Origin: an uncultured Pseudomonadota bacterium
GTDB lineage: Bacteria > Oederibacteriota > Muellerivitia > Muellerivitales > Muellerivitaceae
Length of the DNA: 64,000 bases
Direction: 5' to 3'
Assembly: GCA_963843375.1 (NCBI GenBank)
Contig: CAWJKT010000004.1
Coordinates: 480,001 to 544,000 of the forward strand
Shown: one piece after another, positions 5,586 through 64,000 of the stretch
Layout of the letters: each line of letters starts with the position of its first letter
Numbering within the stretch: the first letter of the stretch is position 1
Notes under the pieces: model-generated
Databases searched by the model: none
The model's input: the letters and a program-made list of their open reading frames with translations, nothing else
Told to the model about the DNA's origin: nothing
Translations under genes and position numbers: made by a program

Positions 5586-6169
5586 TCACCACTTCTGCAG
5601 CGCGCAGCCGAGCGTCTTGGCTTGGCGACGCGCGGGTCGCGCCCGGCGAGGAGATCGTCGAGCGCGTCTCTCAAATAGGGCGTCGCGTCGTCGTGAAGAT
5701 GGTCCTTGTCGCTGTCGATGCCGCCGCGGTAGTGAAGGCGCGCCGCGGCGTCCACGACGACGGCGTACGCCGCGTACTCGGCGCCCAGGGCGTCGGCCAA
5801 CTTGGCGCCGCGATCGACGAGGATGGGGAAGGTGTAGCCGCGACGGCTAGCTTCCTCGGCGTCGCGCTCGAGCGAAGCTGCGAACCTCGGAGTCGACCAT
5901 GAAGAACTGGACGCCGCGCGACTCGGAACGTCGCGTCGAGGGCGCGCAGGCGAGCCTCGTGCTGCCTGAGGCAATGGCAGTCCGGTGAGAAGAACACGAG
6001 CACCGTGAGCGTCGCGTCACTGGCGAGCGCCCTGGCATCGAGCGTGCCGCCCTCGCGACAGGGCCGACGCGGGCACGAACGAAACGGCGCCTGCGTGCGG
6101 TCGCGCACGACGCGGTCGTCGCGACGACGACCAGCGAGAGGCGGGCCGCGGCCGCGCGGTCAGGACCAT
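5586..6169 (-). CDS. redoxin / thioredoxin-fold (AhpC/TSA-like) protein (frameshifted)
   Basis: TVLVFFSPDCHCL, YTFPILVDRGAKLADALGA, YRGGID, LRDALDDLLAG, C-terminal GC. Confidence 0.8.
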
Positions 6170-7098
6170 GAGCGGATGACCGTGAGCGTGAGCCCACCCC
6201 GATGCGGGCTGATTGCTCCCGAGTTCGCGCGACGGGTGGCTCCAGGAACAGCCCGCCGAGCAGCGCGCCAAGCGTCCGTCACGGGGTAGAGCCCGGAGAG
6301 CGTGAACGTCGTGAGCCGCTTGGCACTTTCGGGGACGCTGGTGCCCCCCAGGCCGTCGCGTCGCCCTCGAATGCGTACGAGGCGGACAGCGCGAGCGCGG
6401 CGTCGTCGGCAGCGTGTACGCCGCCGCCGCGAGCAGCGTCAGCTGCGGCGCCAGCGTCTCTCCGTAGCGCGGCGTGCGCACGGCGAGCGATGCGCGGTCG
6501 CATTGACGAGCCAAGGCCCGTAGACTTGCTCCAGCGCGAGCGCGCCGTTGATTTGCCAAGCGCCGAGGCCCGTCGCGTCGACCTCGAGGGGCTGGGTGGA
6601 CTGACTCCGGGGCGGTCCCCGTGGGCGCCGTCACCCCGGCGAGGAGCGCGATGCCCGGGCACGTAAAGCGACTCGCCCGCCCGATGAAGTCGTAGCGCCC
6701 GCTCGCGTTGATGTCTCCGATGCCCCCGCCGAAGTGTGTCCACCGACTGCGGGCGTACTGCGCGGCGCGTCTCGTCGAACGGCACGAGCAGCGCGACCTG
6801 GCCGCGCGTGAGGAAGCGCGACCGCGGCGAAGAGATCTTCCTCGAAATCGAACTCCGTGGTCCCCGCGAGGCGACGCGCAGGTGCCGCCCGCCGGGGTCG
6901 AAGGCATCGGCGCGCTGCAGCTCGGAGTCCACGCCGGCGAGCGCATCCTCGTGCATCTCCAGGCGCGCGGGCGTGACGGCGCTCCCGCCCGCGCAGCACG
7001 CCTGAGCCTGCGCGCGCGACGACGAGGTGCCCGCGGCGGCAAGTGCCGCGAGAGCGAGACGGCGACGCTACGGAATTTCGAAACTGCGGGCGCCACAT
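6160..7098 (-). CDS. putative outer-membrane transporter-like protein with N-terminal CC motif (frameshifted)
   Basis: signal-like region then AQACCAGGSAVTPARL; GGGIGDINASGRYDF and GVTAPTG; end overlaps the redoxin start. Confidence 0.6.
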
Positions 7099-7569
7099 GG
7101 TCGCTCGACGGGACCGGAGATGGTGGTTTTTAGCTCCCAGAGCCCCGCCATGAAGAGATCGAGGTCGGTGACGAGGTACTTGCCGCTGCCTTCGCGGGGC
7201 GGCGGTCGCCATGATGGCGCCATGGTTCATCGCGGGCATCCACGGGCGGATCTGGAGGGTCAGTCCGTCGCGCGGCGCTCCGCTCGCCGCGTCGGTGACG
7301 GTCAGCTCGGCGTCGATTCCGCCGCGGGCGGGCGGCTGCGGTGAAGTCCGCACCTCGACGCGCAGCGTTCCCGAGTCGGTCATGAGCGTGCTCAGGGGGG
7401 CCGACGGGAACTCCGCGCTCGGGCCCGTCCCGCTGGAGCATCCGAGCGCGGCCGCGAGGCAGGTGGCGGCGACGGCGGCGCGGGCGGCCATCGCCCGCTT
7501 CGTGCTCTGGCCGCTCGCAGGCCGACGCCATCCCGGAAAGCGCGACGCGGGCCGGTTCGAACGAGTCAT
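7068..7569 (-). CDS. YtkA/FixH-like lipoprotein
   Basis: lipobox ALGC; PWMPAMNHG motif; one frameshift near 7200. Confidence 0.7.
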
Positions 7570-7634
7570 GTGCGCTTCTCCATCTTTCTGCCGGTCGTCG
7601 CGGCGCGGGCATGAAGTGGGCGTCTTGCGCCGGT

Positions 7635-9008
7635 TCATAGCATGAAGGCGACGGCCAGCTGCGCGCCATAGAGCTCATCGCGCGCGCTGCCTGGCCCGAA
7701 CGTCGTACCGCTCGGAGGGGTGAACGCAAAGGAATAGAGCTCGTAGTCGACGGCGAAGCGCGGCTCAATCGCCCGGGCGAGCAGGAGGGCCGCGCCGAAC
7801 TCGGCGTCGAAGCCGCGCCCCTCGGGTGAGTAAAAGCGCGTCGAAATCGCGTCGTTGTCGACGATCGCGCGGTACCCGACCTCGCCCAGGAGCGAGTAGC
7901 GCCCGAAGGACACGCGCGTGTCGACCGCTGGGCGTACGGCCCTGTAGGTCACGTCCGGCAACTCGAGCCCCGGCGGCCCCACGGCGCGACGGGAAGTGAA
8001 ACTGTACTCGACGGACAGGCCCACGACGAGACGCGACCCCGGATGGATTCGAGCGCGAAACCCCGCGGAGGCCGACGACGGAAAGACGTCTGCCGCAGCA
8101 TCGCTCGAGTTATTCATCTCCGAATAGATGCGAACGTACTCGGCGAGGATCCCCACGTCGCCCCACGGCGCACCGGCGCGCGTCAGGGGAAAGAGCTGAG
8201 CGCGCACGCGGGCGCCGGGAGCCGGGAACAGCGTGTATCGACTGCCGTCAGGCTGGATTCCATTCCTGTACTCGAAGTGTCGGCCCACGACCTCGCCGGC
8301 CAGCGCGACGTCGAGGACGGATGCCGCGGCGATCTGCGCGGGGGTCTGCTGCGGTCGAACCGGCCCCCGGGCGACGTCCCCCACGGGGCTCCGCGGGACC
8401 GAGGCAAGCGAAGGAACGGGGACCGCCGTCGCGGGGGCCGCCGGCGACGAGGGCGCGGAGCACTGCCGCCCCTGGCCGAGATCGCCGCCCGAGGCCACGG
8501 GCGGCGGCGGGGGCACGTCTTCGGTCCTCGGCGCCTGCTGCGCGTAGGGCTCGAGGCTCGGCCCGAGCACGGCGGCGAGCGCGGCGACGTCGTCCTCGTG
8601 CGACGCGAAGGTCAGGGTCACCTCTTCGGCCGACGCGGGCATCTTCCATGCGGGGACGACCACCACCAGGGCCAGGCGCGCGCGCGGGTCTCGACGGACG
8701 CGAACCACGACCGCGGCGGCGACGCCCATGATCCGTGCGGCCCTGCGCACCCGGTCGACGACGGCCGGATCGAGGCTCCTTCCGAGGGGTCGATTCTGTC
8801 CTTCGCGCACGAGCTCCGCGTGGAAGGCCTTGTCGTCGGCCAGCTTGAATCCGTCAGGCAGGGCCTGGATCGCGGCGTCTCGCACCCGCTCCGCGTCCGG
8901 CCCTTCGACATAGAGGGCCATCGTGGCCGTCTGGGCGAGCGCCTCTCTCGAGCCGCCGAAGGCCCAGAGGAAGACCAGCAACGCGAGCGCCCACGGTTCG
9001 TGCTTCAC
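7635..9008 (-). CDS. secreted protein with Pro-rich linker and putative C-terminal beta-barrel
   Basis: GTG start overlaps the cusA stop (GTGA); signal peptide ending ALA; amphipathic strands ending LYGAQLAVAFML. Confidence 0.7.
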   Translation of the reverse strand: MKHEPWALALLVFLWAFGGSREALAQTATMALYVEGPDAERVRDAAIQALPDGFKLADDKAFHAELVREGQNRPLGRSLDPAVVDRVRRAARIMGVAAAVVVRVRRDPRARLALVVVVPAWKMPASAEEVTLTFASHEDDVAALAAVLGPSLEPYAQQAPRTEDVPPPPPVASGGDLGQGRQCSAPSSPAAPATAVPVPSLASVPRSPVGDVARGPVRPQQTPAQIAAASVLDVALAGEVVGRHFEYRNGIQPDGSRYTLFPAPGARVRAQLFPLTRAGAPWGDVGILAEYVRIYSEMNNSSDAAADVFPSSASAGFRARIHPGSRLVVGLSVEYSFTSRRAVGPPGLELPDVTYRAVRPAVDTRVSFGRYSLLGEVGYRAIVDNDAISTRFYSPEGRGFDAEFGAALLLARAIEPRFAVDYELYSFAFTPPSGTTFGPGSARDELYGAQLAVAFML

Positions 9009-12000
9009 TCGCGCGCCCACGCGGGGACCGCGCCGACGACGGTTTCGATCGGAACGGCCAGGCGGTGGGCGCGCCGCAGCTGGTGCTGTCGCCATAGCGT
9101 GTAGAGGACGGGCAGGACCTCCAGGGTGAGAAACGCGCTCGTGGCCAGTCCGCCGATCATCGGCGCGGCGACCCGACGCATGATCTCCGCGCCCGCCCCC
9201 TCCGCCCAGAGGAGCGGCAAAAGGCCTGCCGCCATGGTCGTGATGGTCATGAGCTTGGGGCGCAGGCGCTGCACGGTCCCTTCGGCGTGCGCGGCGATGA
9301 TGTCGCTCCGATCGTGCAACCTTCCTTCGCGCACGCGGCGATGGAACGCTTCGTCGATGTAGACCACCATGACCACCCCCGTCTGCATCGCCAGGCCGAT
9401 GGTCGAGAGGAGGCCGACCCATACCGGCGCCGACAGCGGGTAGTGGAGCAAGAACAGCGTCCAGAAGCTCCCCACCAGGGCGAACGGGACCGCGGCGAGG
9501 ACGATCAGCGCTTCGGTGAAACTCCGAAACTGAAGGAACAAGAGCGTCAGCATGGCGACGCCCATGAGCGGGGCGATCCACTTGAGGCGCCGCTCGCCCG
9601 CTGCGAGCAGCTGCGACTGGCCGGTCCATTCGATCCGCTCGCCGGGCTCGAGGCGCAGCTGTCCCCCGGCCTGCGCCTTTGCGAGCGCGCCCTCCGCGTC
9701 CCGCACGTAGCTTGCGACGTCCATTCCCTCGTCCAGATCGACGTAGACGTAGGCGACGAGGTCGCTCCCCTCCGTGCGGATCGTTCCGGGATGGGTCACG
9801 TGCGAGGGATGTCCAAGGAGCGCCAGCGGCACCGGCGGCTCCGTGGACGAGCGCACCGTGACCTCCCGAAGGTCGTCCGCGTCCTCGCGCTTCATGCTCA
9901 TGTCGGTCGAGACCCGGACGCGGTAGGGCTTGCTCTGCGGCTCCATCTCGGCGCGAGCCTCGGGGTCCATGCGCTCGTGCTCGTGTTCGTACACGCCCCC
10001 GGTGCCGTGCTCGTGGCCCGACGAGCGACGGCTCGCGAAGCCCTTGAACGAAAGCTGCACCTCGCCGACCTGACCGCCTGTCGTCATCAAGTCGGTCGTG
10101 GCGCGGACGAGCGCCGGGTCCACGTCGTGGAGCGCCAGGGCGCTCGGGTCCGGCTCGAAGGTCAGCCAGGGCTCGCCGCCGAGCGACTCGAACGCCGCGC
10201 TCCGCGTGCCCGGCAGTCGCGTCGCCCACGCTTGCAGCGCAGTGCCGAGGGCGTCGAGGCGCTCCGGGCGTGCCGGCGACGATGCGAATCCCCACCGGCG
10301 TGCGGACCCCGTTGGTCGACATCATGTCCATGCGCGCCCGCGCGGGCGCGGTCCACGCGCTCGTCCAGCCCGGCGAGCGGCTCGCTTCATCGAGCTTCGC
10401 GACCAGCTCGGACAGTCGTCTCGCGGCGTCTGCCCGGGCCAGGCGAGACCGAGCACGCGCTTGAGCCAAGACGGCGCCCAGCTCGAGTACCAGCGCGATC
10501 GCGATCGGAGCGGCCATTCCGAAGCGGGGCCTGAGGCGGATGGTCGTCTCGACCATCGAGTACGGCGCGGGATCGGTCGCCGTGTCCGCCCGGCCCACCT
10601 TGCCGAACACGGTGGCGACCTCCGGGAACTGGCCTCATCGCATGGTCCTGCCTCGCGAAGCTGCACGGCCGCCTCCCCTGCGGGCACGCCCGGCAACGTG
10701 GTCGGCATGAAGAGCAGGTCGCCCTCGTCTACGCGCGGGCAGGAACTCGCCGCCGAGCCGCGTCACGATCGGGAGGCAAGAGGCGACCGCCAGCGCCGCG
10801 GTCACCAGCGTGAAGGCCGGCCGAGCCAGGGCGAAATGCACGAAGGGCCGGTAGATCCGGACGAGCGCCTCGTGATCGGGTTGTCGAACTCGGGAAGCAC
10901 GCGTCCCACGAGCAGCCGATCGCGCAGCGCGGGCGCGGCCGTGAGCGTCACCAGCGCCGCCGACGGCGATGACCAGCGTCTTCGTGAGCGCCAACGGGCG
11001 CGAGCAGCCGGCCCGTCTCGCCCGCGAACGCGAACACCGGAAGGAAGCTGAGCGCCGTGATGAGCAGCGAGGTCAGGATGGCCGGCGCGAGCGCGCCGGC
11101 TGCGGCGACGATCGCGCTCCGGCGCCGCGCCGCGGACGCGCCCGCGCCGGCACCTCTCCAGCCGGCGGTGACACGCTTCGAGCGCCACGACGTCGGCGTC
11201 GACCGCCATGCCGAGCGCGATCCCGATCCCTCCCAGGCTCATGATCGTCGCGGGGACTCCCAGGATCCGCATTCCGCCGAAGGTCAGGAGGAGCACCAGC
11301 GGCAGCGTCATCAGCGGCACCAGCGCGCTCCGGCCGTGAAGCAGGAAGGCCAGGATGACCAGCGCGACCACGGCCGACCTCCTCGCCGAGCGCGCGGAGC
11401 AGCGTGTGCTCGACGCGGTTCGCGAGGTCGAGCCGGTCGTAGACCGTCACGAGCTCGACGTTGCGCGGCAGTCGTGGCCGCGCGATCGAGCGTCCGCTCG
11501 ACGCTCTCGATGACCGCCCTCGGATCGGCGCCGCGCCGCGCGACGACGATCGCCGCCGATGGTCGCCGCGGCACCGCCGAGGTCGGCGATGCCGAGCGGC
11601 ATGTCCGGGTCGATCGAGACACGGGCGACGTCGCCGACCCGCGCCGGCGACTGCCGCCTCGGGCGTCGTCGCGCAGGGCGAGCCTGCTCGAGGTGAACCC
11701 CCTCGCCTCGCCGTGCGCCACGCGGAACCAGCGCGGACACGACGTCGCTGAAGGCGACGCCTCTCGCGCGCGGAGCTGCTCGGGCTCCGCGACGACGAGG
11801 AGCTCCTGAACGGGCTCGCCGACCGCCGCCACCTCGGCGACCCCCGGGATCGCCTCGAGCGCCGGACGAAAGAGGTTGTCCTGAAGCTGCCGCAGGGCGA
11901 CCGAGGCTCCGCTGATGTGCGGGTTCACGAGCGCATACTGAAGATCCAGCCGGTGCTCGAGGCGGCCGGCCCGACCTGAACTCGAACGTTCGCCGGCAGC

Positions 12001-12362
12001 TTGTCGCGGCATTCGCGCGACGCGTTGCACGATCTCCTGCCGCGGCCGCTCGAGGTCCGCCGACGAGCCGAAGAGGACGTCCACATACGCCATGCCGGAC
12101 ATCGAAGAGCCGCGGATCGCCGTCGAACCAGGGACGGAGCCGAGCGCGTCGGTCAGCACCTGACTCACCCGCGTGGCGACCTCGGTGGCGGGGTGCCCCA
12201 TCCAATCGGCCACGAGCCCGATCTGGGGGTCGGAAAGGTCGGGCACGGCATCGCGCGAGAGCCGCCGGCGCGACGAGCTCGCCGGCGAGCGCCGAGGCGA
12301 TGCGCGCACGGCGATGACGATCCGAGCATGGCGCGTGCACCATGCGACGACCGCGCGATCAT
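9005..12362 (-). CDS. cusA: CusA-family heavy-metal RND permease (frameshifted in the 5' half)
   Basis: DAVPDLSD, IMSLGGIGIALGMAVDA, MPTTLPG, DPAPYSMVETTI, RMDMMST, RLRPKLMT, MRRVAAPMIGG. Confidence 0.9.
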
Positions 12363-13309
12363 GGCGTCACAGCCTCCCCGGCACCCCGGGCCGCACGAAG
12401 GCGCCTCTCGGCGTCGAGGAAGAACGTGTTCGCGGCGATCACCGCCTCACCCTCGTCGAGACCCGACAAGATGACGATCGCGCCCACCTCCCCGGCGCGT
12501 CCGCCGACGTATCCCGAGTCGAGGATTCGGCCTATCTCGACACGCCGCTTCGTGAACGTGTCGTCCCCGCGCGGGGCGGCGAGCACGTAAGGGCCCTCGG
12601 CCGAATACAGCACGGCGCTCGAGGGGACGACCAGGAGCTCGCGAGGTCGGAGGGCGATCTGCAGCGAGCCGACGTCTCTCGGACCGCGTGGAGGCGCGAC
12701 CTCACCCGCGTCCGCGTCGAGGCGGAACCGGACCTTCACCGTCGACGAATCCACGGCCGACGGAGGCTCCGACAAGAGGTGCGCGTCGACGCCCATGTTC
12801 GGCGCGCCTCCTCCGAAGAAGAGCGCGTGCTCGTCGGGCTCCAGCCCGACGAGGTCGTCGTCGTAGAGGACCGCCGTCCCGACGCCATCGGCTCCCAGCC
12901 ACGCGGCCGCTCGCACCTGTTCGGCGAAGATCCGCCGCTCGGCGCGGACGACGCCGCCGCTCCTCTCGGCCATGGAGACCGGTCCGCGCGCAAACTCGGT
13001 GACGCGAACGAGGGCCATCCCGCAGATCGGGCAGTCGCCGGGCGCTCCGCTGACGACCTGCGGATGCATCGGGCAGACGTAACGATCGACCGAGCCGGTG
13101 ATGGCGCGATCGTGTGCGCGCGCGAGCACGACGCCCGAGACCAGCGCGCCGGCGGCGACGAGCAGCAAGAGAACGCGCCCGAGGACGACGAACGACGGCG
13201 GCGCGCCGGCGCGCGCGTCCTCGCCGCCGGCGGGGTCTGGTCCCGTCGACACAGACGGGTCCGCCCCCGAGGACGTCGAGTCCTCGGGGGCGTGGAAACC
13301 GATGCTCAT
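12359..13309 (-). CDS. CusB-like periplasmic adaptor with heavy-metal-binding domain, short form
   Basis: TM segment, YVCPMHP...CPICGMAL, LVVPSSAV...SGLDEGEAVIAANTFFLDAE; stop overlaps the cusA start. Confidence 0.8.
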   Translation of the reverse strand: MSIGFHAPEDSTSSGADPSVSTGPDPAGGEDARAGAPPSFVVLGRVLLLLVAAGALVSGVVLARAHDRAITGSVDRYVCPMHPQVVSGAPGDCPICGMALVRVTEFARGPVSMAERSGGVVRAERRIFAEQVRAAAWLGADGVGTAVLYDDDLVGLEPDEHALFFGGGAPNMGVDAHLLSEPPSAVDSSTVKVRFRLDADAGEVAPPRGPRDVGSLQIALRPRELLVVPSSAVLYSAEGPYVLAAPRGDDTFTKRRVEIGRILDSGYVGGRAGEVGAIVILSGLDEGEAVIAANTFFLDAERRLRAARGAGEAVTP

Positions 13310-13375
13310 GGGCTCACCGCTCGAACTTCATGGGTTGACCGATCGAACGCCGATTCCGCTCGTTCTTCGCGTCGG

Positions 13376-16279
13376 TCAGAAGGCCGAGAACGCGGCGAAC
13401 GAGTTGTTCTTGCCACTCGTCTGGATGCAGTACCCATTGTGACGCATCGGCGGAAGTGGGCTGTTCCAGTTGCCGTTCTGCGGCTCCACCCTCCCGTTGA
13501 CCGTCAGCTGCGCCGTGCTGGTGAAGCTGCTGCTCTCGCCGCCGGCGAGCCTCGACTGGGTCTCGAAGCACGCGGGCCCGGTGCCCAGGTTGCCCGACTG
13601 GAAGTTGCTCCCGTCGGCCACGGTGAACTGGACCGGATTGTTGCAGAGTCCCGAGCAAGGCGTCGCGAGGGTCGTCGCCAGGCAATCCGACAGGCATTGC
13701 GACAGGCCAATCGCCGGTGACGTGAACACGCCCTGAAAGCCGTTGCCGATTTGTCCGAGGCAGTTCTGCTCGTTCCCCGCCTGCCCGAGCGCCAGGCATT
13801 GCTGGGCCTCGGGAAGCGAGTTCCCCTGACAGAACTGGGCGAGTTGCTTGCAGGCCGTCATCGGGAGCGCCTTCCAGAGCGAAGGGTTCTCGTCGGGCGT
13901 CTGACCGGTCTGCGCCTGGAACACCGAGAGCGCCGAGTAGAGTTGCCCGTTGAAGAGCACCCGGTCGTTGACCGCATACCGCACCTGCGGCTCCCACTGC
14001 CCGCCGCTGCTGGTGTCGGTGTTGACTCGGTCCCAGAGTCCGAACTCGGTGTCCGGCGTCTGCCCCGACTTCGACGTGTGCGCCGTCGTGACGCGGTAGT
14101 CGACGTTGTTGAACGCGACGATGGTGCCGACCTTGTAGCTGACCCCGGCCGCCCAGCTGTTGACGACGACGAGCTCCCGCATCATGTCGTGGTCTTCGTG
14201 GCCGACGAGGTGGCAGTGCCACACGTAACCCGGACCGGCGATCGGATCGGGGAACGAGGTCGGGTCGATGGGGAACAGGTTCTGGCCCGGGCTCACCCCA
14301 CCGGCCGCGACGTTCTGCGGCGCCCACCGCACCATGATGCGCGTCACCATCCCCGAGGGCGCTTGAATGGTGTCTTTCCAGCCCGTCTCGTACGGCTCGG
14401 GGGGAATCACCGGTCCCTGGAGGTACGATTCATAGGGAACGACGATCTGACTGGTGACCGGGTTGTGCCCGTTCATGAGAGCCCACTGCTCCCCGTAGTC
14501 CGCGGCGTCGATCTGCTGGCGGTTGATGAGCTGGAACTCGAGCAGATGGATGTGAATCTGGTGGGTGTTGAGGTCGCTGTCGCCCGCGAACGGACCGTTC
14601 GGACCGCCCGGGAACACGTTGACGAGGTCCCACTCTTCGGTCGAGCCCACGAGCGCGATCTCGGTCGGCGGCGTGTCGAAGTCGAGGCCGTCGATCGCGC
14701 GCTTGTTGAAGGTCGGCGAAAGAGCGTCGTCGTCCTCGAAGGCCCGGAGCACCTTGACTCGCGTCGGGGCGTTGGCCGTCAACGCCGGCCTGGCGGGGAA
14801 GAGAGACGCCGACAGTGCCGGCGGAGTCACGGGCTTCCCGCTTTGAACCGTGAACTGCATCACGAGCTCGGTGCTGCCCGCCGGGTTCCCCGCGTGGCCG
14901 ACGGTGTTGATCAGCGCGATCTTCGTGTCGGCCGCGAACTTCGAGAAGTCGACCAAGATGTCGGCGCGCTCCGTGATGCCGACCTGGACGTCGTTGACCG
15001 TCTGCGGCGCCGGGTAGGTACCCCCGTCCGAGCCGATGATGGTGAAAGGAAGATCTTGCTCGGTGCAGGACGCGCTGTTTCCGTCGGCCGAGATCTGGAC
15101 GAGGTTGTTGTTGGCGGAGTTCTGGCGACGTTCCAGTCACCGACGCAGAGCTGCAGGTCGTAGAGCTGCGCGTTCGCCGCCGCGAGGACCCGGAAGCGGT
15201 ATTGCTGCGGCTGGACGTTCAGGTTGGGCCACACCTGGCCGTTGACGAGGATCTCGTCGGCGCCCTCGTTGTACGACCAGTAAGGGCTGTTCGGCGGCGA
15301 GTCGCCGCCGTTCTGATCGTTCGGCGTTGGCCGAGTTCAGGGTGCCCCGGTCCGGCGGGAAGTCGAAGTTGCCGTCGGTGTAGAACTGCCTCGCCGAGAG
15401 CGCGAGCGGGATCTCGAACTGCCCCGTCGGCAGCGGCGAGCTTCGGCCCGTCGAGCGGGGTGTTCGCCGGATCGCGGATGAAGTACGCCGTCCCCACGAC
15501 GCCCGAGTAGAGCCCGATGCGCGTCACGCCCATGACGTGGTCGTGATAGAAGAGCTGCCGTCGGCGACTGCTGGTTGGGCATCAAATACGTGGAAGTGAC
15601 GTAGCTCGGACCCACGTATTGAGGTTGGGCGTGAACCACTCCTCGGCGGTTCCGTCTTGGTCGGGGGCCACGACGAGCCCGTGCGTGTGCGTGACGTGGG
15701 CCACCGGAAACAGCGACTTCGCATAGCCCGGCGGGAACAGGTTGAACGGCGGAGTCGGCACCTCGATGGACTGGGGGATTCGCCCAGTGCAAGGTGGGGT
15801 CGACCTCCAGGAACGCGGGTTGCTGGATGTTGTCCACCCAGGTGCATCTGGGTGGGGATGCCCACCGTGTTCTCGAAGACGGCCCCCGGCGTCACCGTGA
15901 TCGTGGAGCTCGTCGTCGAGCCCTTGGGGTGCGCCTGGCCGCTGTAGCCGAGCACCACGGTCTGCGGGAATCCGGGCGGCAGCACCTGCTCCTGCGATTG
16001 CGCCACCGACAGCGTGTAATTGTTCTGGACGACCTTGCCGTTCTTCGTGACGGGCGTCGGCGTCCATACCTCGGGGATGTTGAGCTGCTGGGCGAATTTC
16101 GGCACCGTCGTCGGGTCCAGCGGTACCTCGCTGGGCGAAGGCGAGCCCACCGCCTGCGCCTGGTTGCCGTTCTGTTCGCCCCCGGACTGCGGATCGTTCC
16201 CGAACTGCGAGCTGCAGGCCAGCATGATCCCCACGAGCCCCAGCGGTACGGCGGCGTATGCGCTACGCGGTATTTTCAT
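13376..16279 (-). CDS. lipoprotein multicopper oxidase (CotA/bilirubin oxidase-like) with two CBM5/12-like modules and a Cys-rich C-terminal domain (frameshifted 15.0-15.85 kb)
   Basis: lipobox MLAC; copper motifs HTHG, YHDH, HQIHIH, WHCHLVGHEDHDMM; repeats WAAGVSYKVG..LW and WEPQVRYAVND..LW; RBS GAAGGAGG. Confidence 0.9.
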
Positions 16280-16426
16280 CGTGCCCCTCCTTCGAATTGG
16301 TTGAGCCGGGGCAACCCCTGGTCCGAGCGACGATTGCCCGGACGGATCGAACCCGCACCCGATGAAAGTCCCGCGACGCGGTCAAACGTAACGGGCGAAA
16401 ATGGGCGGCCCGATTTGTCGCCGTGA

Positions 16427-17011
16427 TCACGACGGCTTGCGGCGCGGCGACTTGCGACCGACCGTCGGCGATTCGGCGTTCCCGGAGTCGATGAAATCGT
16501 AACGATCGATCGATTTGTCATCGGTCGATTTCTCCGATTCGCGCACTTCCGCGACGAGCCGGCTCAACCGCATGCGTATCGACACGGGCGATCGGTGGAG
16601 ACGCAAGGCGGCCTCGACCGAGGTCTCCTCGAGGACAAATCGACTCCAGAGCAGAGACAGCGACTCTTCGTCGAGCCGATCCAGCCCGATCCCGAGCCGC
16701 CGTTGCGCGGCCAGCACGCGCTCTGGACCGTCGTCGACGAACGGAAGAGAGTCGTGCTGAAGGTACTCCTTGAGGGCCGCTCCCCGCGCCTCGCTCCGTC
16801 GTCGATGAAGGGCCAGGTGCCGGGCGACCATGCAGCACCAGCCCACGAAGCGCTCGGCGTCGGGCGGGCCGTGATCGTGCGCAAAGACGATGACGGCGGT
16901 GTCCTGCACGATGTCGTTTGCGTCGTCGGTCGTCGACGAGAACCGGCGCGCCGCTCGACGAATCGTCGCCTGGTTCGCGACGAACAGGGCTCGGCGATTG
17001 ACAGGATCCAT
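16427..17011 (-). CDS. ECF sigma-70 family factor
   Basis: DANDIVQDT...FVGWCCMVARH (region 2); ETSVEAALRLHRSPVSIRMRLSR (region 4 HTH). Confidence 0.75.
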   Translation of the reverse strand: MDPVNRRALFVANQATIRRAARRFSSTTDDANDIVQDTAVIVFAHDHGPPDAERFVGWCCMVARHLALHRRRSEARGAALKEYLQHDSLPFVDDGPERVLAAQRRLGIGLDRLDEESLSLLWSRFVLEETSVEAALRLHRSPVSIRMRLSRLVAEVRESEKSTDDKSIDRYDFIDSGNAESPTVGRKSPRRKPS

Positions 17012-17218
17012 CCCGGGCCTCCTCTGCGGCAACACAACTGTACCGGCTGCCCGGTGCGACCAGGCAGACCGGCAGCCGTTACTCGTTCCGAGGCGACGTT
17101 CAGGGCGTCCGAGAACGGATTGCCGGTGCCCCGCGGTCCCGTCGGGCACGCCGGATACGACAGGCGGCCGGGCACGGTTCATCGCGCGCGACGGCGGGCC
17201 GGCTATCTTCCTTGCGCC

Positions 17219-17728
17219 GTGACGTCCGCGCACGCAAGGTCCCGGACCGACGAGGAGAAAGGTCTCTTCCGCGCCGTCTACAGCGTCACGCGGACCAAGC
17301 GTCGTCGCTTCTTGTGGTGCGCCTGGTGGAGCGGAGAGCCGTGCGAGGCGCCGTTCCGGCCGCCCGACGCGTGGAGCGGCGGGGCACGAACGGAGGACGA
17401 GGCGAGGACGCTCGCCGAACGCGCGGCAGGCCTGCCTCTCTCGCCCATCGAAGGCCGCTGGGCGGGCGCCTGGGTCCGCGTCCGCGCGGGCCTGCCCCCG
17501 TTCGTCGATCGCATCGGAGGCGCCGCGTCCGCCGCCTCGCCGCGGCCCGTCGATCCCCACGCGCTCCTCGGCATAGCGCCGGGCGCCCCGCTCGATGAAG
17601 TGAAGGCCGCGTTCCGCCGGAAGGCGCTGCAGCACCATCCGGATCTGGGGGGCGACGCGGCGGCGTTCATCGCGATCAAGCGTGCGTACGATCGCATCGT
17701 ACGGCGCCGATCGGGGCGAAAGCGCTGA
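17219..17728 (+). CDS. J-domain (DnaJ-like) protein
   Basis: C-terminal LLGIAPGAPLDEVKAAFRRKALQHHPDLGG...AYD; start uncertain. Confidence 0.8.
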   Translation: MTSAHARSRTDEEKGLFRAVYSVTRTKRRRFLWCAWWSGEPCEAPFRPPDAWSGGARTEDEARTLAERAAGLPLSPIEGRWAGAWVRVRAGLPPFVDRIGGAASAASPRPVDPHALLGIAPGAPLDEVKAAFRRKALQHHPDLGGDAAAFIAIKRAYDRIVRRRSGRKR

Positions 17729-17864
17729 CAGCCCCAGGCCAACGAGCGGCCGGGCGCTCCTGGACAAGGCGCCGGCGCCGCGTCACCGTGCTCGAACCTC
17801 CGGGCTCGACGTCGGGGCACGGCTCTCGCATGGTCCAGGTGAACCCATCGATACCCGACGATCC

Positions 17865-19421
17865 ATGCCCTGCCCTCCTCGCCATCACTCCCTCCGCTTC
17901 CTCCCCTGGACTCTGGGCGGCGTGCTCGCCTTTGCGGCCGCGCCTGCCTCGGCGACCACGCTGCCCATCGCGATCTCGCCGGATCGGACCCACCTCGTCG
18001 ATGCGACGGGGGCGCCGTTCTTCCTGCAAGGCGACTCGGCGTGGGAGGCCATCCCGGCGCTGAGGCCGTCCGAGCTGACGACGTACCTGGCGGACCGAAA
18101 GAGCCGCGGCTTCAACACGATCATCATGCAGCTCGCGGGTCACGTGGCCACGACGCACGCGCCGCACTGGGTCGACGCCGCGGGCGAAGCTCCGTTCAAC
18201 TTCACGCTGGGCGGCGGATTCGTGCGCGAACCCGAAGGGTGACCTCTGCGATTCCTCGACGCCGAACAGCGCGTACTTCGCTCACGTCGACCAGGTCCCT
18301 CAAGCAGGCCGAGAGCGGCGGGATGGTGGTCCTGCTCTTCCCGCTCTACCTCGGCTACCTCTGCCAGGAAGAGGGCTGGTGCGTCGAGATGCGCGCGAAC
18401 GGGCTCGCGAAGGTCGCCGCGCTGGGGCGCTTTCTGGGCGCGCGATACAGGTCCTACACGAACATCGTCTGGGTCGAGGGCGGCGACGACAAGCCCTCGA
18501 CCGCCGGCAACCCGTCGGACCTCGACCTGGTCAACGCGCTCGCGAACGGCATCGTCGCCGGCGAGGGGGGCGGGACGGGGACGCACCTGCAGACCGCGCA
18601 CCTGGGGAGGGACGTGTCGGCGGCGGACGTCGCCGGCGTCACGTTCCCGCTGAGCATCGACACGACGTACTCGTATCTCGGCAAGGATTCTCTTGACGAA
18701 GACCGAGTCCGACACGGAGCGCGACTTCGGCGTGCGCCCCGCGTTTCTCATCGAGTCGCTCTACGAGAACGAGCACTCGACGTCGACGACGGTGCTGCGC
18801 GCGGAGATGTACGAGCCGATTCTTGTCGGGTGAGACGGGGTTCGTGCTCGGGAACAACCCGCTCTGGCTCTTCGGCAAGACGGGCGATGGCAACCCCGGA
18901 TGGAGGGTCGCGACGTCGACGACGGCCTACCCCACGTGGCAGTCGGCGCTCGAGAGCGCGGGATTCGCAGGACGCCCAGCGCGCCGGGCAGTTCTTTCGG
19001 TCGATCGCCTGGTGGGGCCTGGCACCCGACCGATTCGAAGCGGGTCATGACGTCGCTCGTCACCGCCGGCTCGGGCCTCCTCGCGTCGACGGCCGACCGC
19101 ACGCTCGCCGTCGGATACTTCACGGACGCCGCGACGGCGACGATCGACCTCTCGCGCATGGCGGGGCCGACGACGGCGTCGTGGTCGATTCCCTCCCTGG
19201 GCACCACGACGTCGATTGGGACGTTCCCCGGCCGCGGTCTCCACGCCTTCGCGACGCCCGGGAACAACGCGGTCGGCGCGCAGGACTGGGTGCTCTTGCT
19301 CCAGACGGCGACGGCCGGCGTTTCGCCTGCACCCGCGATCCGGACGAAGACCTCGTGGCTCCCCCTTCTTTTCGGCGCCGCCCTGCTGATCGGGGCGACG
19401 CGACGCAGATCGTCGGCCTGA
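17865..19421 (+). CDS. DUF4038/apiosidase-like (GH140-related) secreted protein with collagen-binding-like domain (frameshifted)
   Basis: HLVDATGAPFFLQGDSAW, YLADRKSRGFNTI, NIVWVEGGD, FLIESLYE, QDWVLLL; C-terminal TM plus RRR. Confidence 0.75.
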
Positions 19422-19427
19422 GGCGCG

Positions 19428-20817
19428 TCACGCCGGGGGCGCGGTGGAGCTCAGTTTCGTCGATTCCGCCGCGGAGCGCTTGCGCCCTCGGCGCAGCGCG
19501 AGCCCGAGCGCCACGACGAGCATCGCAGCCGAGCTCCGGCCGTTGCCCTTCGCGCCCGCGCTGCATCCGCCCTGACTGCTCCCGTTGCCCTGGGCGCCCG
19601 GGCTCGCTGCCGGTGCACCGGATCCAGAGGACCCGCTGCTCGCGCCGAAGGTTCCGATGCTCACGCCTCCCGAGCTGCTGGCCGCCCCGGAAGACGCGGC
19701 AGCCACCCCGCCGGACGATCCGCTCGCGGCTCCGGACGATCCGCTGCTGGCCGCGCCGCCTCCCGACCCGCTCGCCGCCCCGCCCGACGATCCGCTGGCC
19801 GACCCGGAGGACGCGCCGCCGTCGCCGGTCGATAAGAGGAGCCCCGCTGCTCATGGTCCCGTTCGTCCAGAAGGAGTCCGTGAACGTCGGGTCGTAGACC
19901 ACCGGAGAGCCGGTCTTCTGTATCTCGAACGACGCGAACGTCGTCGTGAACGTCCCGCTGACGGTCATCGCCTCTTCGGCGAGGTTCAGCTCGGTGAGGT
20001 AGATCGTATTCGAGTAGTACTTCGGATAGTTCGTCAGCGCCCAGTCGAGGACGGCCGCGACGTCAACCGACGAGATCGTGATGACGCCGTTCTTGTCCGG
20101 AGTGTAAGCGTCGGACGGAAGCGCGAAGGCAATGAAGGGGCCCTGGTTCGCGTTCGTCTGCGCGCCGTAGTCCACGACCTCCATGTCGGAGTACCCGAGG
20201 AGGCTCGTGTGCGAGATCTTGCCCCCGTAGTCGTAGAGCGGGTGGTAGAAATCGATGGTGATGTTGCCCTTGTCGCGGAGCCCGGCCGTGGTCGAGCTCA
20301 GGAACATCTCGTAGTAGACGCGGTAAATGTCCGACGACTTCACCGGGGGCACCTGGATCGTCCACGCGCCCTTCAAGAGTGCGATGTCCTTCAGCTGAAG
20401 CGGCAGGTGAGAGCCCGGTTGATTGTAGGTGTCGGTGACCACCGTCGAACCGATGTTGCCGATGCCGGCGTAGAGGGCCTCGCAGCAGCTGTCGTTCAGG
20501 TTGTACTTCTGGGTGAACTGCATGGAGCTCGAGCTCCACGTCACCGAGATGCCGCCGGGGCTGCCGGCGGATGACGCCCAGTTGTTGTCGAAGACCCACC
20601 CGGGGGCGCAGCAGTAGTCGTCTCCTCCGCCCGACGCCGCCGTGCACGGGGACTTCTCCACCGACGCCGTGCAGGTGTCGCCCGCGTTCGATGACGACGC
20701 GCACAGGAGCACGAGGGCTGCGCTGAGCGAGGCGAGGGTACCCCTGATCTTCGTACCGCTACCGACATGCGACGGCGAAAACAGCGGCGTGAACGTCCGG
20801 GGAATTGAAGACGCCAT
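19428..20817 (-). CDS. secreted GH12-like protein with Ser/Gly linker and MYXO-CTERM-like tail (one frameshift near 19840)
   Basis: NNW, LPLQLKDI..W, YYEMFL, YLTELNLAEE; tail GGCS...MLVVALGLALRRGRKR. Confidence 0.55.
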
Positions 20818-21053
20818 GACGACCTCCCTTCGGTAACGCGCTAATGCAAGCAGCTCCACGAAGGGATGCCAAGCGATTCGGCCTCGAACCGCGCCGCGAG
20901 AGGTCACATCTGCGGCGTCAGGGTCCAACGTGATTGTCCCCGCGGGGCCGTTGCCTGTCTGCGCGAGAAATTCAAGATGCTTCGAGCCGCAAGGCCTCCT
21001 TCGGGCGGCGACGCCGGGGTCCCTCGAGCCCGGCTACCGCTGGCCGCGCGCGC

Positions 21054-24929
<3,876 letters not shown>

Positions 24930-25381
24930 TGTCGTTCAGACTACGGGTTATCGAAAATTGAAACAATGAAATGAAGCGCACGAGAGACGATCGGGATCAC
25001 ACGCTCACCCGCGTGTAGCGAGATGGATGGGGGAGCGTACGACGCGGAAGAGCGCACCTTTTGCCCACCTCTTGTCTGATCGACGGATACGGAGGTGCGC
25101 GCCCTGGAATGGCCAGGCAGATCCGGGAGTTATCGCGCGCGACGACGATCGCGGCGATGACCGGCACGATGAGCGGCGACTGAACGGCGAGAGCCAGCAG
25201 CAGTCGCCTTCCGCTCACGCCATCGCGGTATCCGGTGATCCCGCTGCAATGTCGGCGACCGCGCCAACGCGCGTACCCCCGGGCCGAAACGTCGACGTTG
25301 CTCGCGCGGAAGGCGAGCGCGACGACGACGGATGAGGAGAGGTCAGCAGCCTTTTGGGTCAGGGCGCGACGAGCGCCCGCC

Positions 25382-46439: not shown

Positions 46440-47860
46440 GGTCTCCGACACGTTTAGTGGAAGCGTGAGCCTCACCTGTGCACCGGCGAGAGCGTGATGC
46501 CTCCGCAGCAGAGGGTGATGAGGGCGATGAGGCTGGTAGCGGAGTGGAAGCCGAAGCTGCGGCGAGTGATCGTGCGGATCTTGCCATTGAGGCCTTCGCT
46601 GCGTCCGCTGTTCAGGCCCGTGGCGCAGTAGGCGACGATCCCCTCGATGTGCTTCTTGATGGTGCGCGCGACCTTGCGGAACGGGGGCAGCCGGGAACGC
46701 ATCGCCCAGGAGGTCCAGTCGAGCAGCTTGTCGCGTGCGACGTTGACCTGGGCGCCATCGAGGATCTTCGCGAGCGTCTCCTTGAGCAGGTAGGCGCGAT
46801 ACAGCGGCCGGTTGGTCCTCTGCACGTCGGTGAGCTTGCCCCGCTCGACGTCGGTGAGGTTCCACGGATTCTTCTGCAACGCGAAGCGTGTGCCTTTGAT
46901 GGCTTGCTTTTCGTCGGCGTCGGCGGCGCGCCACTGCTGACGGCGCACTGTGTCGAGCGCGTCGTGGGCGAGTCGCTGGACGTGGAAGCGGTCGAAGATC
47001 AGCCGGGCCTCCGGCGAGGCTTCGGTGACGGCCTTGATGTAGGCCGCCGACAGGTCGAGCGTGACCGCCTCCAGCTTCGCGCACCGCTGCTTTCCCAGCT
47101 CTTCGAAGAAGGCGCCGAGCGTGGCGGCGTCCTTGCCCTCGCGAGCCCACACGACGGCGCCGCGATCGTGGTCGATCACGACGGTGACGTACTCGTGGTG
47201 GCGGCGATAGCTCAGCTCGTCGACCCCGATGCGCGTCAGGTCGTCGAGGGGGTCGGCCGTCCGGTGGCGAGGCACGACGCGCTCGATGATCGCTCCGACG
47301 GTTCGCCAGGCGATCCGCATCAGCGAGCTGAGCGTCGTCTTGTCCGCCCGCTGTGCCAGATACGCGACCTGCTCCTCGAAGTCGTAGGTGAACCAGGATT
47401 GGCTCTCGGCCCACGGGACGAACTCGACGACCACACCGCAACGGGGGCAGTCGACGCGCCGGATCGCGTATCGAAGCCACACCCGGAACGGACCCACGTC
47501 GAGGTGGCGCCAATCGCGCGCGCGTCGGTCGTGAACCGCGCGTACCCGGCACATGCAGCCTGAGCACCGCGCGATGCGCGTGGTCGGGACCACCTCGACG
47601 ACCAGGCCCTCGTCGTCGCAGCACACACCGCGAACACGTGTCGCCTTCAGCCCGAGAATCTTCGAGAGTAGAGTGGTCGCGCGCATGGGGGAGCGGGTTG
47701 CCTTTCGTGTCTAGACAACCGCAAGGTACCCCCTCCCTCGTGTGCACCTGCCCCTGCCACCCCCCCCCGGCCGTCTCGACCTACCCAGACGCCCTGAGAA
47801 TCAGGCTGTCAGAAGCCGCAGCCCTGGCCTCCGACCTTCCACTAAACGTGTCGGAGAACC
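46440..47860 (-). mobile_element. ISL3-family insertion sequence
   Basis: terminal inverted repeats with 22-bp perfect core TCTCCGACACGTTTAGTGGAAG (46442-46463 and 47836-47857) enclosing the transposase. Confidence 0.92.
46472..47686 (-). CDS. tnpA: ISL3 transposase
   Basis: zinc finger CSGC/CPRC, IGVDE, TLDLS, DRFHV, SEGLNGKI. Confidence 0.95.
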   Translation of the reverse strand: MRATTLLSKILGLKATRVRGVCCDDEGLVVEVVPTTRIARCSGCMCRVRAVHDRRARDWRHLDVGPFRVWLRYAIRRVDCPRCGVVVEFVPWAESQSWFTYDFEEQVAYLAQRADKTTLSSLMRIAWRTVGAIIERVVPRHRTADPLDDLTRIGVDELSYRRHHEYVTVVIDHDRGAVVWAREGKDAATLGAFFEELGKQRCAKLEAVTLDLSAAYIKAVTEASPEARLIFDRFHVQRLAHDALDTVRRQQWRAADADEKQAIKGTRFALQKNPWNLTDVERGKLTDVQRTNRPLYRAYLLKETLAKILDGAQVNVARDKLLDWTSWAMRSRLPPFRKVARTIKKHIEGIVAYCATGLNSGRSEGLNGKIRTITRRSFGFHSATSLIALITLCCGGITLSPVHR

Positions 47861-59489: not shown

Positions 59490-59950
59490 GGGGCAGCCCT
59501 CACCGTCTCGCGCGGCGCCGCGGGGGGAGTGTGCACGACCAGCACGTTGCGACGCGCCCTGTTGACGACGTTGGCTGCGGTGGTTCCAAGAAGACGATCG
59601 ATGCCCTTGTAGCCGTGGCTACCGATGACGATGAGATCGGCGTCGAGCTCATCCGCCACTTCCAGGATGACGCGCCATGCCTCACCCGTGCGCACGATCG
59701 GCTCTTGGAGGTCCACCTCGGGATTCCGCCCCTCGAAGTGCCGGAGAGCCTCGAGCGCGCTGTTCGCCAGGAACGTCGACAGCGGATCGGCAAGACTGCC
59801 GGCTGCAGCAGCGGGGAACTCCGGAGGAATCGACACGACGCGAAGCGGGTGGAGCCTCGCGGCGAAGCGCCCCGCGATCTCGGAGGCCGCGTCGAAGACC
59901 CCCTCCGTGCGCGACGAACTGTCGAGCGCGACCAATACTCGGGCGATCAC
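59486..59950 (-). CDS. universal stress protein
   Basis: VLVALDSS, LIVIGSHG, LGTTA. Confidence 0.9.
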   Translation of the reverse strand: MIARVLVALDSSSRTEGVFDAASEIAGRFAARLHPLRVVSIPPEFPAAAAGSLADPLSTFLANSALEALRHFEGRNPEVDLQEPIVRTGEAWRVILEVADELDADLIVIGSHGYKGIDRLLGTTAANVVNRARRNVLVVHTPPAAPRETVRAAP

Positions 59951-62900: not shown

Positions 62901-63088
62901 CAGCTGATCGTCTTCTCGACGTCGCGTGCCGCGAGACCGGGCGCGAGGGTGCCGATGATCGAGACCGGCGGGGTGAGCTCCGGGAAAGTGTCGACCGCCA
63001 TCCGCGGCGTCACGACGCCGGCGAAGACAACGAGGCCGAGGCAAAGCATCAGGACCGCGATCGGGTTGCGCAATGACAGCGACGTCAT
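59947..63088 (-). CDS. RND efflux permease, AcrB/AcrD/AcrF family (single frameshift near 62260)
   Basis: DTFPEL, GRLVDDAVVVLE, SNGILLVD, SRFVPIAMT. Confidence 0.93.
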
Positions 63089-64000
63089 GGTTTGACCTCC
63101 GCGCGCGCGTCTTGCGCGGCGGCGTCCGGCGCGGCGGTCGGCACGGCGCTGTGCCCGGTCTCGGCCTCCGTGACGGTCACACGGTCTCCGTCGGCCAGGA
63201 GCGCCCGTCCTTCCGTCACGACGTTCACCCCTGGAGCAAGCGCGGTCTCGAGGTAGAGCTCGCTGCCTTCCTCTCCTTGCACGGCGAACGTCTTCTTCCT
63301 GGCGATTCCGTCTTCGACGACGAACAGGGCCGCCTTGGAGCCGGAGATCGAGGCCGCCGTGAGAGGCACCGCGGTGGCGGGTTTGGGGGTACCGACCTGG
63401 ATTCGAACCTCCCCGGTCGTGTTGACCGGGATCTCGCGGGTTGCGTTGTCGAGATCGACCTCGACGTGCACCGTCCGCGTGTCGGGATCAGCGGCCGGCG
63501 AGCGTCGAGCCACCGCGCCGACGACTTGTTTGCCCGTCGCCAGGACGTTGATCGACACCGGCGTCTTTGCAGCAACGGAGTCGAAGTCGATCTCCGGGAC
63601 GTCGAAGGTCATCCGGACCGTGTTCCGATCCACCAGTGTCACGAGAGAAGCGCCAGGCCGGACGAAGGCGCCGGGATCGATCGAGCGGACCGAGATCTCC
63701 CCGTCGAAGGGGGCACGCATGATGCAGTCGCCTACAGCCAAGCTCGTGGCCGCGAGCTTCGCCTTCTGCGACGCCAGTTGTGCTTCCTCCGCCGCGCTCT
63801 GAGATTGCTTCTGCTCGGCTTCGTTCGGCGAGACGTATCCGCCGTCCAGCAGGGTATTGAACCGCGCCGACTCGTCGGCGATGGCCTTCTGCCGGGCATC
63901 GATGGCCCGCGCCTCGGCGGCGACGGCCTGGCTCGAAGCGCTCGCGTTACGGCAATCGAGGGTCGCGAGCACGTCGTTGCGTTTGGCGACCGCGCCCGGC
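63085..64000 (-). CDS. RND periplasmic adaptor (partial, start outside the window)
   Basis: alpha-hairpin, RAPFDG, DPDTRT, AVPLTA. Confidence 0.9.
   Translation of the reverse strand, partial: PGAVAKRNDVLATLDCRNASASSQAVAAEARAIDARQKAIADESARFNTLLDGGYVSPNEAEQKQSQSAAEEAQLASQKAKLAATSLAVGDCIMRAPFDGEISVRSIDPGAFVRPGASLVTLVDRNTVRMTFDVPEIDFDSVAAKTPVSINVLATGKQVVGAVARRSPAADPDTRTVHVEVDLDNATREIPVNTTGEVRIQVGTPKPATAVPLTAASISGSKAALFVVEDGIARKKTFAVQGEEGSELYLETALAPGVNVVTEGRALLADGDRVTVTEAETGHSAVPTAAPDAAAQDARAEVKP

Follow-up and report, generated by a model that had tools for sequence, protein, structure and literature searches.

A CusA relative without a TolC partner, encoded beside secreted copper enzymes, likely serves enzyme loading rather than copper export

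Transporters of the Cus type, which belong to the resistance-nodulation-division (RND) superfamily, figure in the reviews searched solely as exporters for detoxification, dependent on a channel in the outer membrane; the supply of copper to secreted enzymes is assigned there to P-type ATPases and soluble chaperones. Our literature search, with subscription journals (including Myxococcus Cus papers) and supplements outside its scope, yielded no description of the system considered here or of a CusA without an outer-membrane factor (OMF) engaged in enzyme loading. This system lies in a 64,000-nucleotide stretch of contig CAWJKT010000004.1 (assembly GCA_963843375.1, positions 480,001 to 544,000; hereafter, the window), in a cluster where a short CusB-like periplasmic adaptor and a CusA-derived transporter follow a carbohydrate-binding multicopper oxidase. 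Its conserved core is a two-gene module, composed of a stripped adaptor and a CusA variant, encoded beside a secreted copper enzyme. Comparison of gene context and protein anatomy indicates that this pair is probably an inner-membrane copper loader acting on the periplasmic side for the secreted enzymes encoded next door, and not an exporter. Since the exit and the TolC-reaching parts of the adaptor are lost and a secreted copper enzyme is nearly always found beside the pair, this CusA relative of soil myxobacteria likely loads enzymes instead of expelling copper.

The neighbourhood evidence comes from a first set of 78 distinct adaptors and from a family sample of 89 genomes that the first set partly overlaps, the flanks being scanned as six-frame translations against profiles built from sequences gathered in this study. 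Within the first set, CusA directly follows the adaptor in 68 of 68 loci with sequence there, and of the 54 loci having at least 1.2 kb upstream, 45 have a multicopper oxidase next door. The nine laccase-less loci comprise four radical oxidases (one of them 5.4 kb off), one Cu/Zn superoxide dismutase (SOD), one tyrosinase-like enzyme, one tandem second copy and two blanks with CusA cut off. In the family sample, 27 genomes carry 47 modules, all of which were examined; their neighbours are 37 multicopper oxidases (laccases), seven radical oxidases of the galactose-oxidase/GlxA type and one tyrosinase-like protein one gene away, giving a cuproenzyme encoded beside the module in 45/47 cases, and the two modules with no enzyme seen are both cut by contig ends. 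The logic of this comparison is that detoxification would leave laccase-less loci without any special neighbour, while enzyme loading would have other copper enzymes stand in. Radical oxidases within 12 kb number seven, vs. 0.07 expected by chance. None of the 24 full-length control CusA-type pumps has a laccase- or radical-oxidase-type enzyme neighbour, the controls being no random sample because they were drawn from the 72 non-family loci of a scan for the pattern of the adaptor's heavy-metal-binding domain (HMBD), in which 7 of 79 loci were true family. Two top-scoring and previously unlinked radical oxidases (L297 and L301) turned out to adjoin module genes (an adaptor cut short, or the end of a CusA of the family type), so that the prediction held. 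Up to four modules occur per genome (four in G444), each adjoining its own enzyme; the CusA paralogues of G444, G495, G500 and G501 group by client, not by genome, and a quick tree splits the linked laccases into two clades, each with its own support, and unlinked laccases fall between the two. Judging from the tree, independent partner switches would be few, about four to six. The range of the module seems narrow, with carriers making up 27/89 genomes in one family and 7/401 in a neighbouring order-level sample (a tally that includes the unpublished genomes G350 and G433, which enter no other count), and with only the centre genome matched among 401 in a phylum sample scanned at lower sensitivity (eight candidates scored per genome). 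Loci L126, L129, L123, L257 and L261 show two modules in tandem or two laccases per module, and L126 has a cupredoxin gene after cusA.

The original prediction, made from the window alone, had treated the cluster as one system of eight co-oriented minus-strand genes. All eight were located in the order given, i.e., extracytoplasmic function (ECF) sigma factor, oxidase, adaptor, CusA, beta-barrel protein, YtkA-like protein, Cys-Cys (CC) barrel and redoxin, and the overlapping starts and stops at 12359-12362 (ATGA), 9005-9008 (GTGA) and 6160-6169 can be read in the sequence. An eight-gene system, however, is not supported, the beta-barrel protein of 457 aa recurring in 1/31 wide loci, YtkA plus CC-barrel in 4/31 and redoxin in 3/31. 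Thus, conservation of gene order, proposed as a check, extends to the adaptor-CusA pair beside a cuproenzyme without TolC, but not to the full eight-gene order; likewise, the carbohydrate-binding laccase is indeed the neighbour here, while elsewhere the partner need neither be a laccase nor carry a carbohydrate-binding module. The ECF-type sigma factor is an optional part, found directly upstream of the laccase in L005, L006, L008, L129, L260, L263, L274, L277 and L288.

A second claim, that neither CusC/TolC nor CusF is encoded in the window, agrees with our scans as far as TolC is concerned: a local hidden Markov model search found no TolC-type gene in the first 30 kb, and a Pfam scan of the whole assembly placed no gene of the outer membrane efflux protein (OEP) family inside the window. 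As for CusF, no open reading frame of the cluster matched it, no window-wide CusF search having been made, and no match was found in five module genomes. The nearest OEP gene starts 359 bases beyond the window end (G000:C4:544359-545621) and heads another, multidrug-type RND operon; the part of this operon at about 59950-63972 of the window includes a normal adaptor, its TolC-type gene lying just past the window end. Across the first locus set, the profile scan revealed an OMF beside the module in 0/37 upstream and 0/25 downstream informative flanks. In the family sample, an OMF gene is present in 2/47 stretches, in both cases from other operons (one gene lies beyond histidine-biosynthesis genes, the other ends a convergent multidrug operon). 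The same profiles detected a TolC-type neighbour in 23/24 control CusA-type pumps. The question of whether homologous clusters routinely include a tolC is thereby answered: no module has its own TolC, vs. 23/24 of the controls. Several substitute partners were rejected. The bin gave 20 OEP matches, one gene of these lying within the high-GC stretch described below, and the bin's TolC genes were discarded as partners given that the bin is chimeric and that the adaptor finds no match in any of the 31 other genomes of the bin's order. The 457-aa barrel was discarded as an exit channel on its presence in a single one of the 31 wide loci, and the CC-barrel because it stands beside YtkA and away from the module in most of the 43 genomes that have it; its co-occurrence with the module (23/27 module genomes vs. 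20/62 others) is confounded by kinship.

The adaptor has lost the parts that reach TolC. It is composed of a transmembrane (TM) anchor (residues 39-72), a Cys/His HMBD (residues 77-101) and the membrane-proximal and beta-barrel domains, and it has neither a lipoyl domain nor an alpha-hairpin, the AlphaFold2 (AF2) model and structural alignment showing a contiguous beta-barrel with nothing inserted. In this model (pLDDT 75), the TM helix, the HMBD and all-beta domains are seen and the hairpin is absent; Foldseek ranks AcrA, TMexC and CusB at the top. Residues 129-222 superpose as one barrel on residues 47-349 of EmrA (Z 11.5, root-mean-square deviation (rmsd) 2.4, 93 aligned), the lipoyl and hairpin inserts being passed over, and the alignment with ZneB gives Z 12.3, rmsd 3.7 and 169 aligned. 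The protein is about 150 residues shorter than canonical adaptors, and 111/120 homologues have 184-228 aa between the HMBD and the C-terminal motif, vs. 321-385 aa in canonical adaptors. The label "short CusB-like" in the original prediction was therefore right about shortness, yet the protein is not a broken CusB but belongs to a conserved adaptor family: one search returned 482 homologues, 229 clusters were obtained at 50% identity (E up to 1e-30), and every one of the best 150 of these 229 clusters is shorter than 400 aa. The HMBD is of a Cys/His type also present on a copper ATPase, and its alignment with the N-terminal Met site of CusB is weak.

The transporter, in turn, combines a retained copper site with an altered relay and docking region. 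Residues are given in E. coli CusA numbering, derived from alignments to solved CusA structures, with roles as in PMC8092243, and were counted in 40 distinct full-length family members vs. 21 canonical pumps (five control rows without Met573 were dropped beforehand). M573, M623, M672, E625, D405, R83, E567 and D617 are invariant in 40/40 family proteins, the Met triad motifs being located also in the CusA of the window, which moreover keeps D405 and K984, has E939Q with a new acid at 407 and is without the DN docking hairpin; K482 (40/40) as well as K984 (34/34) and T987 (33/33 with sequence there) are kept, and M271 is mostly kept. The motif of the DN docking hairpin occurs in 0/40 family members vs. 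20/21 controls, and the hairpin segment, 65-66 aa long in 21/21 controls, measures 42-62 aa (33 proteins) or 79-92 aa (7 proteins) in the family. The subfamily of the window has, in addition, a His/Met-rich insert of 30-40 aa in the DC hairpin (window about 10030-9890). Family CusA proteins form one fully supported, long-branched clade apart from 10 canonical CusA (FastTree), and they score 643 and 670, below the TIGR00914 cut-off of 701; an AF2 model from an eight-row alignment (pLDDT 53) was too poor and was left unused. The proton relay D405-E939-K984 is not complete, in that D405 and K984 are kept and E939 is replaced by Gln in 36/36 proteins, and an Asp or Glu stands at position 407 in 40/40. 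In E. coli CusA, E939 is needed for transport and point mutants there stop it (PMC8092243). This substitution, together with the missing inner Met pairs and the degenerate docking domain, would suit a pair that does not pump, its relay being dead, and instead acts passively in the membrane as a copper chaperone or buffer, keeping Cu(I) concentrated where enzymes have just been exported. The retention of D405, K482, K984 and T987 and the fixation of a new acid at 407 speak against this explanation, suggesting a relay that was rewired rather than decayed, and we regard a purely passive role as improbable.

The enzymes beside the module share a secreted nature and, for the most part, copper sites that look intact, and not a fold. 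The window oxidase is a predicted Sec lipoprotein (Cys22) with a CotA-like three-domain architecture, frameshifted in its N-terminal half, and carries all four copper motifs (HTH, FYHDH, HQIHIH and HCH...HEDHDMM, the last with the axial Met), which are invariant or nearly so among 10 oxidase homologues. Pfam places its two CBM5/12 domains at about 14155-13873. The linked laccases also share a conserved Cys-containing C-terminal domain of 94 aa (window 13379-13660) with no Pfam or PDB sequence match, which may be an undescribed carbohydrate-binding module, possibly resembling CBM64. In most clients a hydrophobic stretch is followed by a Cys at the N-terminus, and no twin-arginine signal was seen by eye in the linked laccases. 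The Cys, Tyr, Tyr-His and His motifs of radical oxidases are present in 9/11 (one protein has no matched Tyr-Pro motif and one no Cys motif), and both copper sites are present in 2/2 tyrosinase-like proteins. Two large secreted proteins (L275:11304-15845 and L182:5-4996) carry a dicopper domain of the tyrosinase-like kind that is divergent and rich in Cys, has both copper sites and scores under the Pfam cut-off; it is joined in these proteins to vWA and repeat domains. A complex prediction for the laccase core with the adaptor (the L005 pair) scored 0.00 and was used neither way.

The prevalence of multicopper oxidases (37/47 neighbours) and the precedent of CopA passing Cu(I) to CueO (PMC7558416) could be taken as signs of periplasmic detoxification, with Cu(I) delivered to the periplasm or to the laccase for oxidation to Cu(II), or with the module mopping up shed copper. 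However, 8/47 neighbours, and further ones from metagenomes, belong to classes that do not act as cuprous oxidases (radical oxidases, tyrosinase-like proteins, SOD); the laccases are CotA-like and far from CueO (best PDB match of an intact homologue is CotA with E 8e-60 vs. CueO with E 1e-10), many of them with sugar-binding domains; and several copies exist per genome, each at its own enzyme. Radical oxidases, tyrosinases and SOD are not known to detoxify Cu(I) by oxidising it. Other heavy-metal efflux pumps in 5/5 and copper-ATPase matches in 4/5 of the module genomes checked indicate that detoxification has other routes. Hence, this role appears unlikely.

The copper loader that we favour coincides in part with the inference of the original prediction that the module delivers copper to the oxidase and does not expel it: the absence of a module TolC, the loss of the TolC-reaching parts and the secreted cuproenzyme neighbours of four unrelated folds all speak for delivery, though not by an eight-gene system. 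Under the loader model, the periplasmic Cys/His domain of the adaptor would capture scarce Cu(I) and hand it to Met573/623/672 of CusA, much as the N-terminus of CusB does. A conformational cycle, probably driven by protons via the rewired relay (D405, D/E407, K984), would then let the ion go at the trimer's open top, the site at which the subfamily of the window bears its His/Met-rich loop. There the copper would pass to the as yet copper-free enzyme (mostly a lipoprotein exported by Sec and still held at the inner membrane), the client in the window being the carbohydrate-binding laccase, and the separate YtkA-barrel-redoxin trio may supply periplasmic copper. A bolder and distinctly more tentative version would make the pair an energy-driven metal insertase, stripping Cu(I) from a high-affinity catcher and injecting it into copper-free enzymes docked at the place of TolC; each enzyme class (laccase, radical oxidase, tyrosinase, SOD) would have a copy tuned to it.

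A number of observations weigh against the loader. Support for it is comparative throughout, coming from gene context and anatomy. Pumping may be lost given the E939Q replacement, and the cytoplasm-side methionines M410, M501, M403 and M486 occur in 0/40 family members; canonical pumps keep them in 10, 7, 13 and 17 of 21, respectively, and because these pumps too are often without the inner Met pairs, the diagnostic features are reduced to the docking change and the E939Q/407 swap. One shared docking surface is unlikely for clients of four unrelated folds. The counts are not independent events, as the genomes are related and neighbours are co-inherited, and the grouping of CusA paralogues by client is also expected from simple co-inheritance. 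Related stand-alone laccases have no module nearby in 14/14 cases, 8/11 additional radical oxidases are without one in the DNA retrieved around them (a further contig was of insufficient length), and a radical oxidase is encoded in 12/62 genomes without a module match, which makes the module an accessory and not the sole route. Finally, the contig of a near-identical strain is without 3.6 kb spanning most of cusA and keeps the laccase and the adaptor.

Two remaining explanations fare worse than those above. Copper transport in reverse, either as uptake from the periplasm to the cytoplasm or as recovery from turned-over enzymes, would accommodate the rewired TM4/TM10 charge pattern, the degenerate exit funnel and an HMBD type shared with a copper ATPase, but the Met ladder through the membrane is missing and the clients, mostly Sec-type lipoproteins, would fold and be metallated outside the cytoplasm, which renders it very unlikely. 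Ordinary efflux through a TolC borrowed from another locus, in the manner of the hairpin-less BesA system, is scarcely credible in spite of the many other RND systems in these genomes, the OMF genes in 2/47 stretches and the ability of BesABC to work without an adaptor hairpin (PMC3807786), because BesA keeps a lipoyl domain and a co-transcribed BesC where the module lost lipoyl domain, hairpin and DN hairpin, both nearby OMF genes belong to other operons, and the enzyme neighbours would go unexplained.

The YtkA-like protein, the CC-barrel and the redoxin constitute a separate, commoner unit. The YtkA-like gene encodes a PWMPAMNHG motif and scores 17 bits against PF13115 in the frameshifted piece of the window, intact homologues reaching E 2e-10 and 1e-8 (41 and 36 bits; cut-off 25.9). 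YtkA adjoins the CC-barrel in 29/30 loci (L310-L339), and redoxin follows the CC-barrel in 8/30 of these short loci. An intact CC-barrel homologue in L005 has a structure match to PF13557 in the ESM Atlas (TM-score 0.79), the N-terminal Cys-Cys motif is present in 28/32 CC-barrel reading-frame pieces, and the protein is found in 43/89 family genomes, as a rule once and mostly away from the module. The Met/His and Cys-Cys motifs of the trio suggest copper uptake across the outer membrane as a candidate function. The 457-aa protein, which is not in the conserved module, is composed of an N-terminal domain, a Pro-rich linker and a likely outer-membrane barrel; it has no Pfam or NCBIfam match, and its neighbours in the ESM Atlas are hypothetical proteins of Myxococcota, among them a cluster that is 81% OMP_b-brl.

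Table 1. Genes of the cluster, from sigma factor to redoxin, with positions in the window.
Feature	Position	Strand	Evidence
ECF-type sigma factor	16427..17011	-	Pfam Sigma70_r2 E 3e-8
Multicopper oxidase with two CBM5/12 (client)	13376..16279	-	Copper motifs; Pfam Cu-oxidase and two CBM5/12
Stripped periplasmic adaptor, 316 aa, intact (core)	12359..13309	-	Pfam HMBD E 4e-14
CusA-derived RND transporter, frameshifted (core)	9005..12362	-	PF00873 (ACR_tran) pieces; best PDB match CusA E 3e-46
457-aa barrel protein (passenger)	7635..9008	-	No Pfam/NCBIfam match
YtkA-like lipoprotein, frameshifted, start uncertain (7638 or 7569)	7069..7638	-	PF13115 E 0.009
Cys-Cys outer-membrane barrel, frameshifted, start uncertain (about 7060)	6160..7064	-	Phenol_MetA_deg type
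Redoxin / AhpC-TSA-like, frameshifted	5586..6169	-	Weak Pfam Redoxin E 0.013

One-base indels frameshift five genes of the cluster (oxidase, CusA, YtkA, CC-barrel and redoxin). A pseudogene interpretation was ruled out, and the frameshifts are attributed to assembly errors, because, at such sites in cusA, ytkA and the CC-barrel gene, contigs from independent runs show one-base gaps relative to the window (12 examples out of 73 listed indels), and because many homologues are intact. In one such run (X1), a 7619-base contig of the near-identical strain joins position 8248 to 11881, so that most of cusA and the first half of the 457-aa barrel gene are missing, either through a natural deletion or through an assembly artefact. 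The contig itself is chimeric: its GC content is ~62% over 1-118 kb, ~50% over 118-460 kb (as in most of the bin) and ~70% over 460-564 kb, and the window sits inside this last, 105-kb stretch, which is foreign to its genome bin. Consequently, the taxonomy of the bin and most of its TolC genes are not those of this organism, and further findings on the same contig may bear the wrong taxonomy. Close homologues of the adaptor come from records labelled Polyangiaceae or Myxococcales.

Just upstream of the cluster, at about 17800-20900 of the window, are a secreted apiosidase-like (DUF4038) enzyme and glycoside hydrolase (GH) look-alikes, as judged by eye, and genes of the apiosidase-like, GH9 and GH39 kinds stand beside a number of other modules (L258, L276, L180, L175 and L147), hinting at a polysaccharide-related role of the clients. 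The window also contains a small protein with a J-domain, encoded immediately upstream of the sigma gene (about 17100-17450), a very long frameshifted protein at 21034-24981 with what we take to be Cys-rich myxobacterial repeats, and a transposase-like gene (ISL3 type by eye) at 46472-47686.

If the loader is real, an RND protein serving enzyme maturation would represent both a new use of the superfamily and a new route of cuproenzyme assembly. The module offers a natural test of how a CusA handles periplasmic copper without an exit duct and of which minimal adaptor domains suffice for metal hand-over, and, should it work in a laboratory host, a two-gene loader could raise the copper occupancy of recombinant laccases and radical oxidases. 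It also flags neighbouring genes as copper enzymes, which led to the two divergent tyrosinase-like proteins mentioned above.

Overall, the module can be set side by side with several described systems. With CusCBA/SilCBA (PMC8092243, PMC7558416), the module shares the M573-M623-M672 plus E625 site, D405, K984, an adaptor gene directly before the transporter gene, and an adaptor with N-terminal metal-binding, membrane-proximal and beta-barrel domains; unlike CusCBA, it has no OMF gene, lipoyl domain, hairpin, DN docking hairpin or inner Met pairs, and it carries the E939Q and D/E407 changes. It is thus not a member of CusCBA, four defining features of which are absent, nor is it a BesA-type system: the Borrelia BesA adaptor is likewise without an alpha-hairpin (PMC3807786), but it has a lipoyl domain, a co-transcribed OMF and a role in drug export, whereas the module adaptor has neither lipoyl domain nor OMF and bears a metal-binding domain. 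The YtkA/CtaK lipoproteins of copper-centre assembly (PMC13344008) resemble the window YtkA in PF13115 membership and in the Met/His motif, and differ in that the latter is paired with a Cys-Cys barrel and a redoxin and is only occasionally near a CusA module. Sco/DtpA for the radical oxidase GlxA (PMC4736821) and Csp3 for CotA (PMC9484137) illustrate that these classes of enzyme depend on a copper delivery of their own, above all under copper scarcity; the delivery proteins are unrelated and no RND transporter figures in those accounts. Closest in proposed role, an exporter repurposed to metallate extracytoplasmic cuproenzymes, are the P1B-ATPases CopA2/CcoI and the CopA/GolT-CueP-SodCII system (PMC7558416); these are ATP-driven P-type transporters working with soluble chaperones, whereas the module described here is composed of an RND protein and a membrane-anchored adaptor, with one copy per client.

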